Source: Octopus sinensis
Lineage: Eukaryota
Direction of reading: 5' to 3'
Assembly: GCF_006345805.1 (NCBI RefSeq)
Contig: NC_043017.1
Location: forward strand, 3,720,001-3,784,000
Length of the DNA stretch: 64,000 nucleotides
The translations under genes were made by a program, and so were the position numbers. Below are positions 29,477-38,411 of this stretch, in pieces; position 1 is the stretch's first letter, and each line of letters begins with the position of its first letter. Under the pieces are notes generated by a model, which had not been told where the DNA came from, did no database searches, and saw only the letters and a program-made list of their open reading frames with translations.

Positions 29477-29739
29477 ATGGGACACGAACAGCAGGATGTG
29501 AAAGAGTTGAGAAATTTGAACTCAAGGTTTTCAAAATTCACGGAAAGGAACAGTTTCCTTCAGTGTGAGCTCAATTCCCTGAAAGACGATTTGAAAAAGC
29601 GAGATGCTGACGTCAAGTCCATTAAAGAGGCGTCGCGAGTAGAGATTCAAACGATAAAAGAAATCCATGGAAAGACAAATGATCAGAAAAACGACCGTAT
29701 CAACACCTTGGAACAAGAACTGCAGGGCTCATGTGCCAA
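29477..29739 (+). CDS. Gene A exon 1 (start, coil 1A and start of coil 1B)
   Basis: ATG in AACAAGATGG context; [18 protein letters not shown]...QGSCAK; donor AA|GTAAGT (phase 2). Confidence 0.88.
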
Positions 29740-29748
29740 GTAAGTACG

Positions 29749-29790
<42 letters not shown>

Positions 29791-34465: not shown

Positions 34466-34506
<41 letters not shown>

Positions 34507-37500
34507 CACACACAAGGCGGCGAGCTGGCAGAAACGTTAGCACGCCGGGCGAAATGCGTAGCCGTATTTCGTCTGCCGTTACGTTCTGAGTTCAAATTCC
34601 GTCGAGGTCGACTTTGCCTTTCATCCTTTCGGGGTCGATTAATTAAGTACCAGTTACGCACTGGGGTCGATGTAATCGACTTAATCCCTTTGTCTGTCCT
34701 TGTTTGTCCCCTCTGTGTTTAGCCCCTTGTGGGTAGTAAAGAAATATATATACACACACATGCACGCACACACACACATGTATGTATGTGTATGTATATA
34801 CACATATACATATACATATAAACCGAAAACTTCATTTCTATTAACAGTGTTTGGAAAGGGAAATTTCCAATCGCAGAATTGAGGCCCAACGAGCAGAGAC
34901 AATACAAGCTGAACTGGTCACCCTCAAACATGACTATGAAATCGTAAGTAAATTTTCTCCTTCTTTTACTCTTATAACTGATTATAACTGGAAAAAAATA
35001 AACAACTGTGGCTTGAAGTGAGAAATACGAAGACAATGACAATGTATGGTGCCCTCCGCCCTAAGGCAAATGTACACAGGCTCTACATTGAAAGAGGTAA
35101 GGGTGGACGTGGGCTGATTAGCGAACAGAAGTGCATCAACAGTGAAAAAAGAAGCAAGGCAGAATATTAGCTAAAAAGCAAAGGAGATCTGAAACAGTAT
35201 GCTGCTTGTGCAGAAGGAGTGACCAAAAATGAACTTGAGAATGCTCGTGAATTCCAAACAAGAACAGCCAACTCCGTATGGAATTACATGGTGGCCTTTA
35301 ACGGGTGGAGAGCTGAACCATCCTGGGGTACAGAGGATTCGCAATCTAGACTAGGGTCTGAAAGTTTACCACACCATAGTGGCTTAAACATGGTTCCTCT
35401 GCTTTGTGGCAGAAGTAAGAAGAAAGAGTGAGAGAAAGTTGTAGTGAAAGAGTACAGCGGGGTTCACCACCCCTACCCCGCCGGAGCCTCGCGGAGCTTA
35501 GGTGCTTTTGCTCAATAAACACTCACAATGCCCGGCCTGGGAATCGAAACCGCGGTCGTAAGAACGCGAGTCCGCTGTCCTAACCACTGGGCCATTGCCC
35601 CTCCACTACTGTTGTTGTTGCAGTTGTTGATGCAGATGCTCTTACCAGTTATGCTGCTACTGCTAGTTTTACTCTTCTTGCTATTTATGTCATCGTGGCA
35701 GCCTGCATCAACTACTACTGCTGCTGCTGATATTGCTATGGTTACAGTACTTGAAGAAGTTGTGGTCTTTCTTCTTTCATTTGCTGTAGACAGAAAACAC
35801 TATGGTGGTGTGAGTCACTGCACAAGTGACGACTCGGTCTCCTGCTCTGACTCACCACGTAGACTTTTGTACTGTTTGATAGATTGATTAGGCCCGGGAT
35901 AGCTCCCATGCTTTTCTGATCAATGCCCTGCTTTTTTTCCTCTGGGTATATTTGTTTTGGTGTTCTAGGCTGGTCTGAAGCATTACCAAGTTGTTGACGT
36001 TGCAGATTCTCTTGTTGCTTTTGGTGTTCTTGTTATTCTTTTGGTTGATATTGATGTTGTTGTTGTTGCTAGTGTAATTTTCGTTGCTGTTGTGTTTTGT
36101 GGACTTACCATCATTATGTCATAATCTTGCCTTCTCTATGTTTCTGTGTAGAAAAGCAAAGAGTATCAGGAACTTTTGGCCAAACAAAATCCCGATGCTA
36201 AAATTAAGAAATATTGGGAATCAGAACTCAACAAATCCAAGAATGAAATTCGCCGAGAATATGAACATAAATTAGAAAGAGAATGTTCTACCATAAAGAC
36301 TGAGTTCGAATCCAAGGTGAGTCCCCTTTACATCTTTACATTTCCGTTTCGTTCTCTGCTACTCAATGAGTGCTCCTTAAAAAATTCCATTATGTTTTTT
36401 ACAAGAAAGGGTTGATTGCTTCTCACTCAGCCTTTCTCCATTCTACAAATGTACCTTATTGAAAAGAACACTTAAATTCTGATTTTTGAAATATTTTGCA
36501 GTAGATTTCTTTTAACTTCATTCACCGTTTCTTGAGATCGGTGAGTTAGGGGAAGAATGCTCTGATTTTCGAGAGAAGGTGAGGATGGAGGATCTAGAGT
36601 ATTAAGAAATCCTTGTGTAAGGTTTCAACCATTTCATTCAACCAACAGATGATTAATAATTCAGGAAACGCTAAAGAAGTCCAAAATACAACGGCAATGC
36701 CCGTAAGAATATTTTTTTCATTCGTAACATAGAATCAAACAGTTGCAAAGCCACCTGGTGTTCATTTCACTAACCACTGTTTTAGAAACATTGCAGTTCA
36801 TGTTGTCGCTGTTGTTTTTCATTGCTGTTGTATAGCCCCATTTCGAGCAGCGATACGATCAAAGGTGTCCCATTTAAGAGCAAACCATTCTTTTTGTTGT
36901 GCCTTTAGAATTATGTTGTACATCGTGTCCCTCTTTTTAAGGGAGACGACTGGGATTTAAGGGATATTTGGTTGCTATTATTAAGAAGCCGAGGAACTCT
37001 GTAGAGTCAGGTTCTGTGAAGACTATTTATTAGGAAACTGAGGGACGATGTAGAATCATTTCTGTGTGTGAGAGAAATCTCGCTGAAAATAAATCCCGAT
37101 GAGTCTACTATTTTCTAGATCGAAATTAGGCTTAGATTTTCTCTTGCTTCTGTTTCTCCACGGTTAAGCCTAGTTGTAGGGCGATAAGCAGGCAGAATTG
37201 TTAGCACGCTGGGTAAAATGCTTAGCGGCATTTCGTCCGTCTTTATGTTCTGAGTTCAAATGTCACTGATGTCGAAGGCGGTAATTTATGGTTTCCATGT
37301 TTCAGTAAGTCAATCGCCGTTTGCATGTAAGCCAGTAAGAATGTGCGAGAGACAGATGGATACTTACAAACACACACACACACACACACACAATCATTGT
37401 TTCAATAGGTTGTAGACCACAGAAACAGATTATTTGATAGAAATTGTACTCTACCGCTTTAAATGGGGAATCGTCTGAGAGCTATGCAATGATAAAAGCA

Positions 37501-38411
37501 TCCAGAATTGTTTCAGCTGAATCACAGTCAATTCCTATTTCGTTGTTAAACATGGTTTCATAATAAAAGACGTGACAGTGTCCAACCAAAAGTTGTTATT
37601 CATTGACAAAATTTAACATTCGTGTTCATTTGCAAAATGGAACAGAGCTTTCGTTGACAAAATCTGGCAATGGTTTTCATTGAAATACACTAGAGGTGAC
37701 CATAAGATGTTGAAGTGGTGTTTATTGGCAAAAATAATTGTGTAAATTTCGCGAATTCAGGCCGAAGTGAAACGCAAATACAAACAATTTCAGCAAAACT
37801 TTTTGGTCAAAGAGAGAAGAAAGATGTTGATATATTGTTTAAAATATTATGAATTGTTTGTATATTATTTCAGATTCGAAGAATACGTTCGGAAGAAGAG
37901 GTTAAAGTGAGACAAATGGAAAGAAAGAACAAAGAAATTCGTGAAGAGAGAGATGAGTTTGAAAAAAACGTTTTGAAATGCAAGGGTCAGGTAATATGTG
38001 TGTGTGTGTATGTGTGTGTGTGTGGTGTGTGTGTGTGTGTGTGTGCGTACGTGTGTGTGCGTTTGTGTGTGTGTGTGTGTATGTGTGTGTGTGTGTGCGT
38101 GTGTGTGTGTGTGTGTGTGTTTGTGAATATGTGTGTGTGTGTAAATATAAATATAGATTTTGTTTCTTTAATTCATTTGCTTATAGATCAACGATTTAAA
38201 ATCGAAATTGGATGAAGAAAACGCTAAACTTTCATCTGTTTCTTTGGAACTGAAACGTGAGAAAGACGAACATAGAGCCGATGATGCCCGTCTCAATGGC
38301 ACTATTGAAATATTGCAAAAGGAAAACCAAGATCTGTTGGACGCGAATCGGAGGATCGAAGACGAAATTGATCGTTATCGTAGCATACTGGATCGGGCTG
38401 AAAACTGGTAA
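29477..38411 (+). CDS. Gene A: cytoplasmic intermediate filament protein, rod-only (~350 aa); join(29477..29739,32657..32843,34848..34943,36152..36316,37874..37990,38187..38411)
   Basis: Six GT-AG exons join in one open frame (phases 2,0,0,0,0). Coil-1A-like [20 protein letters not shown] at the N-terminus and coil-2-end-like [14 protein letters not shown] at the C-terminus; heptad-rich throughout. Confidence 0.9.
32150..32470 (-). mobile_element. SINE family B, internally deleted
   Basis: Matches family B with the middle missing. Confidence 0.8.
32657..32843 (+). CDS. Gene A exon 2 (coil 1B)
   Basis: Acceptor TTATATTACAG, donor [39 protein letters not shown]...VKL; 187 nt, same as paralog exon 58572-58758. 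Confidence 0.9.
33101..33332 (+). mobile_element. SINE family A
   Basis: AAGGCGGCGAGCTGGCAGAAACG...GAGTTCAAATTCC (B-box-like)...GCCTTTCATCCTTTCGGGG...GTAAAGAAATA. Confidence 0.9.
33364..33791 (-). mobile_element. SINE family B, full length
   Basis: Complete head-to-tail match. Confidence 0.9.
34025..34335 (+). mobile_element. SINE family C (tRNA-derived head)
   Basis: A box TGGCTTAGTGG, B box GAGTTCGATTCC, then TTGAGCAAGACACTT...; related copies elsewhere in the window. Confidence 0.85.
34514..34745 (+). mobile_element. SINE family A
   Basis: Near-identical to 33101-33332. Confidence 0.9.
34848..34943 (+). CDS. Gene A exon 3 (end of coil 1B)
   Basis: Acceptor TTCTATTAACAG, donor [41 protein letters not shown]; 96 nt like the paralog exon; absent from the ORF track. 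Confidence 0.88.
35040..35330 (+). mobile_element. R4-clade LINE fragment in gene A intron 3
   Basis: Translates [27 protein letters not shown], homologous to the HPK.D..RLY..R..GGRGL motif of the elements above. Confidence 0.7.
36152..36316 (+). CDS. Gene A exon 4 (linker 12 / coil 2 start)
   Basis: Acceptor TTTCTGTGTAG, donor [20 protein letters not shown]...[18 protein letters not shown]...ESK; 165 nt. Confidence 0.9.
37874..37990 (+). CDS. Gene A exon 5 (coil 2)
   Basis: Acceptor TTATTTCAG, donor [48 protein letters not shown]. Confidence 0.88.
38187..38411 (+). CDS. Gene A exon 6 (coil 2 end and stop)
   Basis: Acceptor [23 protein letters not shown]...[16 protein letters not shown] potential donor TG|GTAAAT after 38407 gives a 221-nt exon, identical in length to the paralog exon. 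Confidence 0.88.

Follow-up and report, generated by a model that had tools for sequence, protein, structure and literature searches.

What becomes of an intermediate filament (IF) protein that has lost everything but its rod, and can such a protein still do useful work? The question is raised by gene A, an IF gene that starts at position 29477 on the plus strand of a 64,000-nt stretch of the Octopus sinensis genome (C21:3720001-3784000; hereafter the window, whose numbering is used for all coordinates without a C21 prefix). Filament assembly is generally considered to depend on the IF head, and IF rods tend to be highly conserved; gene A encodes a natural protein that has neither head nor tail and whose rod, though it remains a helix, evolves at the neutral rate or faster. 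Its relatives in the surrounding gene cluster are cited below as B, G1, G2 and G5-G12, of which G2, the head-to-head neighbour of A on the opposite strand, is the parent.

A rod-only gene of filament descent

Six exons with GT-AG sites throughout splice into an open frame of 350 codons, as the first-pass annotation of this DNA had read them:

29477..29739, plus strand, exon 1: no head, only 13 residues ahead of coil 1A (LNSRF); L1 follows, then the first part of coil 1B; phase-2 donor
32657..32843, plus strand, exon 2: 187 nt, the same size in 11/11 paralogs; coil 1B; 58% identity to G2
34848..34943, plus strand, exon 3: 96 nt, the same size in 11/11 paralogs; coil 1B
36152..36316, plus strand, exon 4: 165 nt; last part of coil 1B and first part of coil 2, with the L12 break between them
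37874..37990, plus strand, exon 5: 117 nt; coil 2, with 3 codons fewer than G1, G2 and G12
38187..38407, plus strand, exon 6: 221 nt, the same size in 11/11 paralogs; coil 2B and an eroded end motif

In the encoded protein, LNSRF begins at residue 14 and YRSIL at residue 340, giving a motif-to-end span of 336 aa (about 335 had been claimed), and the L12 break occupies residues 193-197, which hold the sole proline. The proposed HMMER check of IF identity was positive: Pfam Filament scores 44.8 bits against a cut-off of 40 (E 1.7e-11) and is the only family above its cut-off, while the top ESM Atlas match is an IF rod cluster at 0.92. An exon 6 query matched two proteins among 211 candidates, namely O. 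vulgaris CAI9738638.1 and O. sinensis RefSeq XP_036367724.1 (349 aa), the latter being the gene A model minus its last Trp. RefSeq names this protein 'rho-associated kinase 1-like'; because it passes Pfam Filament and no Pfam kinase family is found in it at E 0.01, that name is wrong.

Gene A is a real gene coding for a rod-only protein, one that descends from the IF family yet lacks the tripartite head-rod-tail plan: 13 residues lie ahead of LNSRF and 0-12 follow the rod. Of the two family end motifs, the first retains LNSR with the following YIERVRFL replaced, and the second (YRKLLEGEE in the family) is altered. The earlier description of A, an IF-derived rod with a long coil 1B, eroded end motifs and neither head nor tail, has thus held up. 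Nuclear lamin identity, which would call for a nuclear localization signal, a lamin tail domain and a CaaX or equivalent end, was rejected, as the protein ends at its rod. A separate lamin-like gene sits on C23.

Origin from the adjoining gene

Protein A is 40% identical to G2, 36% to G1 and G12, and 20-25% to the others. By the NG86 method, A and G2 are separated by 0.48 synonymous (dS) and 0.50 nonsynonymous (dN) changes per site, compared with a dS of at least 1.2 to the other paralogs. The intron flanks of A align with those of G2 only (mean z 3.7 vs at most 0.93 in the other ten), and DNA trees pair the two genes with a support of 100% when every site is used and 96% from third positions. 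In a protein tree, A joins the O. bimaculoides and Argonauta orthologs of G2 (support 89/99) on a branch of length 1.84, which calls for a long-branch warning. The corresponding O. vulgaris accessions are consecutive (A, CAI9738638.1; G2, CAI9738639.1). Taken together, these comparisons show gene A to be an inverted duplicate of its neighbour.

Since the duplication, some 55 residues of the head and every exon of the lamin-type tail have gone from A. Its rod remains within 8 residues of that of G2, the difference lying in three deletions of 2, 3 and 3 residues that keep the frame. An alignment of G2 itself with lamin A runs across coil 1B with no long gap, while one with vimentin has to be split; since A is colinear with G2 apart from those 8 residues, its coil 1B is of lamin length. 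Searches for orthologs of A returned O. sinensis and O. vulgaris only, which does not by itself show absence from other octopods.

DNA tests on A and G2 were restricted to exons 2-6, as exon 1 of G2 is missing from the O. sinensis assembly. That exon is present in O. vulgaris and O. bimaculoides; a 100-N gap occupies window positions 12820-12919, where it would be expected, and the RefSeq G2 protein of O. sinensis is truncated to 392 aa.

The two ends of the gene

Two elements precede the start codon:

29336..29342, plus strand, TATA-like element, 141 nt before the ATG
29461..29476, plus strand, AAC-rich leader directly before the start codon, common to G5, G6, G9 and G11

The start was assigned by paralog comparison and database models, three of which begin at the annotated Met. 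The in-frame TAG cited earlier in support of this start is present upstream, as is the TATA-like element, and comparable elements lie at -153 to -184 in 6 of the 10 paralogs that have an exon 1. Leader similarity over a 40-nt window reaches z 5.9-6.9 against shuffles, to be given modest weight in a low-complexity sequence. Whereas 62-73 residues precede LNxR in nine modelled paralogs, A has 13. Head and coil 1A share a single exon in 10/10 paralogs with an exon 1, and a search of 30 kb upstream for head-like or exon-1-like sequence gave nothing better than E 0.33; both results argue against an upstream head exon. The leader and the paralog-like TATA spacing suggest that translation still begins at the ancestral start, the head having been deleted inside exon 1, a reading drawn from a low-complexity motif with the G2 exon 1 absent.

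At the other end, the first-pass annotation had placed a stop inside exon 6, at 38409-38411. This position proves to be intronic, exon 6 ending at a donor after 38407:

38408..38413, plus strand, conserved phase-2 splice donor, containing the TAA formerly read as the stop
40475..40511, plus strand, terminal coding piece of RefSeq isoform X1, 12 aa; within a high-copy repeat and likely an exonised repeat
41113..41600 (nominal end), plus strand, probable last exon of RefSeq isoform X2; strongest downstream acceptor, its first base completing a TGA stop

In 11/11 paralogs the rod exon closes with the same phase-2 donor as is seen here in the junction TG|GTAAAT after 38407, and both RefSeq isoforms require a splice at this point: X1 gains 12 aa by splicing to the exon at 40475, and X2, which terminates in ...RAEN, needs TG|A across the splice. 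Among contigs from four sequencing runs, presumed rather than recorded to be RNA, one set departs from the genome exactly at 38407, with merely 17 letters beyond, and those from three of the four runs start at the exon-6 acceptor with 27, 63 and 3 non-matching letters ahead of it. Contig depth on exon 6 is 2-4, and these contigs provide modest evidence for spliced transcripts; the lack of cover at 38408-38479 in the four runs was not counted as evidence.

From the shared donor, the two isoforms and the departing contig, it follows that gene A has at least one further exon, a seventh, past 38411, which supplies no real tail. The earlier claim of a tailless end therefore stands in substance, in that the downstream exon that does exist contributes merely 0-12 residues, and the protein is tailless whichever isoform holds. 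The last lamin-type tail exon is found in 11/11 paralogs and not in gene A, for which no tail exon was found in 14.5 kb downstream on the plus strand. The lamin tail domain (LTD) of Pfam is recorded for several paralog proteins; it is split over short exons, and single tail exons gave a faint LTD match in one of four cases (E 0.11) while a genome scan with LTD gave no candidates.

Rapid change within a constrained helix

Aligned over 321 residues with its O. vulgaris ortholog, from whose model one spurious insertion and one gap were excluded, A shows 21 differences, against 8 of 1446 for G1, G2 and G12 together (Fisher p 2e-10); G8 differs at 11 of 416. The 156 amino-acid differences between A and G2 divide into 107 on A, 14 on G2 and 35 unpolarised. 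In a codon branch model of four genes and 261 codons, the dN/dS ratio (omega) is 1.8 on A and 0.13 elsewhere (difference p 2e-18); omega above 1 has p 0.053 in the free model, the 95% profile range of about 1-4 barely taking in the value 1. Synonymous changes are skewed as well (15 on A, 4 on G2, 11 unpolarised; third-position tree 0.46 for A vs 0.06 for G2), so that positive selection on A is likely rather than established. This unevenness is also why a clock-constrained codon test (omega 2.0, p 7e-4) was set aside. Within exon 6, all 14 differences listed against an O. vulgaris-type contig fall in 85 nt (38218-38302); 13 are nonsynonymous and 1 synonymous (p 0.17), amounting to nine residue changes, and the clustering may reflect local selection or gene conversion.

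Such speed invites the suspicion of a pseudogene, and a dN/dS near 1 had been named beforehand as its sign. Formally that value is reached, 1 being at the edge of the range around 1.8, yet stops and helix breakers have been kept out. Neutral simulation at 0.2-0.3 changes per site leads one to expect 8-11 stops, and none of 3000 simulated frames stays open, while that of A is open in both O. sinensis and O. vulgaris. Exons 2-6 contain 1 Pro and 3 Gly where 7-11 and 12-17 are expected neutrally. Core positions are still hydrophobic in 78% of cases vs 65% expected (p 0.02), and 66 of 88 core columns count as hydrophobic. Stops, frameshifts and broken splice sites are all lacking, and the substitutions are constrained. 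With stops, Pro and Gly far below neutral expectation and the core kept, gene A is by these measures no pseudogene and is under selection as a helix, which agrees with the earlier view that it is intact.

Lysine plus arginine in exons 2-6 have risen from 36 to 57 and aspartate plus glutamate from 56 to 61, both above neutral simulations (P <=0.002). A single-sequence model of the protein shows helices at 3-192 and 198-348 with one break at L12, at a predicted local distance difference test (pLDDT) score of 88; no matches were found with this monomer model in Foldseek or with the sequence in a phmmer search of the PDB. The pattern of substitutions indicates that selection keeps a long, charged, unbroken helix and leaves the surface and end motifs free to change.

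A possible chain-limiting role and competing explanations

Excerpts of three papers, cited here by PMC number, bear on what such a helix could do. Vimentin, desmin and peripherin form no filaments when headless, and each tetramer interlocks with the next through the conserved ends of coils 1A and 2B (PMC11900225). Vimentin, which has a basic head and an acidic rod, gives dimers and tetramers when reduced to that rod (PMC10232555), and nestin, with its short head, requires vimentin and promotes vimentin disassembly (PMC11258671). With the head missing and both interlocking motifs altered in A, ordinary elongation seems unlikely, and we give an even chance to the proposal that A is a partner of the full-length cluster IFs and limits filament elongation. 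Starting from the G2 parentage, the loss of the head and tail exons, the fast amino-acid change and the selection against stops and helix breakers, the proposal would run as follows. The protein would be made and would dimerise as a parallel coiled coil, in part with G2-like rods, giving mixed dimers or tetramers; headless units with altered coil-1A and coil-2B ends would join laterally and elongate poorly; units containing A would shorten or loosen the filament network, as nestin does with vimentin; and A would cap or thin cluster IF filaments rather than build ordinary filaments itself.

A model of A paired with the G2 rod, for which the O. vulgaris rod was used as O. sinensis G2 lacks exon 1, scores 0.44 vs 0.00 for the best of three controls, with runs agreeing in at least 75% of contacts and a partner pLDDT of 75-76. 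The pass mark for such models was reached by 51 of 78 solved pairs and 2 of 108 mismatched pairs; passes at 0.60 or below comprise 5 of the 78 solved pairs and all 4 passing mismatches (of 180), and in the 0.44 range a pass is more often wrong than right unless pairing is likely beforehand. The score, which may reflect likeness to the solved lamin and vimentin coils, lends weak support to the co-polymer or modulator idea put forward in the first-pass annotation, an idea that also agrees with the behaviour of known headless IFs. The accompanying claim that A cannot polymerise alone is not established, as the roughly 20 basic residues gained by the rod could partly replace the lost basic head.

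Several points weigh against a partnership with the cluster IFs. Contig depth is low, in runs that are only presumed to be RNA. A keeps just 73 of the 141 columns that are invariant in 10 canonical relatives, and 22 of its 88 core positions are no longer strongly hydrophobic. The three deletions leave a shorter rod, which may upset the register of a mixed dimer, and a subunit obliged to fit a conserved partner should itself be better conserved than an omega of at least 1 allows. The gained basic residues could favour self-association instead, and the head requirement is known from vertebrate proteins rather than from the long-coil IFs of molluscs.

The charge balance leads to the main rival explanation: a self-neutralised rod that can do without a head, either packing by itself into fibres or paracrystals or serving as a stiff coiled-coil spacer that positive selection has fitted to a new role. 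The rod of A has gone from a net charge of -24 to -3 (isoelectric point 6.2), as against -19 to -26 across eight paralogs and -12 in B, whereas heads carry +4 to +9 in the paralogs and +6 to +7 in the parents. Acidic residues were retained while basic ones rose beyond the simulations, omega is estimated at 1.8 despite clear constraint, and nine residue changes are packed into 85 nt of exon 6. Near-zero net charge taken alone, however, is also what neutral drift would give (P 0.75-0.88), unlike the separate residue counts, and those counts would rise under selection for any soluble helix; neither the excess of omega over 1 nor the 13 of 14 nonsynonymous differences is significant. This explanation is rather unlikely. 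A more pointed version is improbable: positive selection would have added about 20 basic residues and so freed the rod of its need for a head, and the protein would now assemble by itself or form some new structure peculiar to octopus.

It is distinctly improbable that A is a relaxed duplicate, little transcribed and kept merely as a harmless soluble helix without a specific job. An omega of 1 falls just inside the profile range, the concentration of synonymous changes on A means that its speed may be partly mutational or due to loss of codon bias, orthologs were returned only from O. sinensis and O. vulgaris, and contig depth is low. But 349 codons and five introns have come through at least 0.2-0.3 changes per site with frame-preserving deletions only, and a single stop would silence a useless gene more easily, yet the frame is open in two species. 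That the gene model is an artefact, with a head exon missed upstream or a coding exon missed for the tail, is highly improbable: the frame is open from 29408, acceptor-like AGs precede the ATG and the last exon is a probable one, but head and coil 1A share an exon in every paralog that has one, the leader and TATA-like element resemble those of paralogs, three database models start at the same Met, and neither the 30 kb upstream nor the 14.5 kb downstream holds a credible missing exon.

Relation to known filament proteins

The nearest known proteins are the protostome cytoplasmic IFs with a long coil 1B and a lamin tail, above all G2, whose orthologs O. vulgaris CAI9738639.1 and O. bimaculoides XP_014776803.1 are annotated '60/70 kDa neurofilament-like'. 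G2 shares with A its six rod exons and their phases, 40% identity, rod length and intron flanks; A differs in having no head, no tail of 149-181 aa (the length in full-length annotated relatives), eroded end motifs, a near-neutral rod, the opposite strand and far faster evolution. Among vertebrate IFs, lens CP49/BFSP2 and keratin 19 are tailless like A, and CP49 also has a divergent coil-1A motif and needs a partner; both differ from A in retaining a head and in being of the short-coil type, and to our knowledge neither evolves at an omega of 1 or more. Synemin, like nestin, is a short-headed obligate co-polymer.

Nestin resembles A in having a head too short for normal self-assembly, which makes a partner or destabiliser role plausible for A, and differs in being a vertebrate short-coil protein of independent origin with a very long tail, whereas A is tailless (PMC11258671). 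Isomin of the springtail Isotomurus, as described in an excerpt of PMC3065449, comes close in other respects: it is a divergent protostome IF with a long coil 1B, a very short head, a poorly conserved YRKLLEGEE motif, basic coils and no lamin tail domain, but it retains both end domains in short form, its coil 1A is altered, and its lineage is a different one. Short-headed and tailless IFs are thus known separately, and A combines both losses. Among the 117 full-rod proteins within the best 150 database representatives, A alone has a head of at most 10 and a tail of at most 15 residues; two others have short heads with tails of 24-27 aa and may be truncated models.

A literature search for gene A or its cluster, accessions included, found no paper in sources that mostly leave out subscription journals. 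In the excerpts consulted, PMC10125929 covers cephalopod lamins only, PMC11431876 notes proteins with IF rod and lamin tail in octopus skin mucus, and PMC10297038 adds little on the subject. A lens role for A, suggested by the analogy with CP49 and a lens-specific IF of squid, is not claimed; the excerpt of PMC3594755 mentions the matter in passing only. With parent and copy adjoining, the A/G2 pair offers a direct test of whether the charge balance of a rod can replace a head, and a way to ask how IF subunits that limit chain growth, nestin among them, come about.

The cluster and its surroundings

Pfam and iterative tblastn searches place 12 IF genes within 440 kb (3.61-4.05 Mb of C21), revealing an IF gene expansion in octopus. 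They form a cluster of long-coil-1B cytoplasmic IF genes in which 11 lie on the minus strand and gene A, the only inverted member, on the plus strand. Exon sizes of 187, 96, about 165, about 120 and 221 nt, and the phases too, are shared by A and 11/11 paralogs. The neighbour on the far side of A is convergent with it:

43700..58758, minus strand, gene B, exon 2 to the tail exons; RefSeq XP_029649122.1

Exon 1 of gene B lies beyond the window, and the protein has a full head and a lamin-type tail. A tandem duplication of about 740 nt sits inside one of its introns (window ~51300-52800). Together with G5-G11, gene B belongs to a fast-evolving subgroup (pairwise omega 0.46-0.72) with several relatives in O. 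bimaculoides and Argonauta; the squid or cuttlefish-like matches returned fall on one branch. In G9 (C21:3910107-3922730; L068-L069) the coil-2B end motif is strongly eroded (GMEVAAMLAQLKDVDS) and exon 5 is shortened, while head and tail exons are present. Exon 1 of G10 (C21:3954922-3955353; L073) carries a frameshift relative to the near-identical G11, either an assembly error or the mark of a broken copy, and G10 was for this reason excluded from the protein alignments and the protein tree.

Some small unplaced contigs (L005, L006, L016-L019, L022, L027, L028) hold divergent IF-like genes, some apparently with very short introns; these may, at a guess, derive from a second organism that was present in the sample, for instance a parasite. 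Upstream of gene A, window ~18000-26000 contains a tandem duplication of about 4 kb, the same open reading frames recurring at a distance of ~3995 nt. It also contains three repeats of 289 nt, in which fragments resemble the reverse transcriptase of long interspersed nuclear elements (LINEs). A LINE-like pair of open reading frames lies at 15210-17130.

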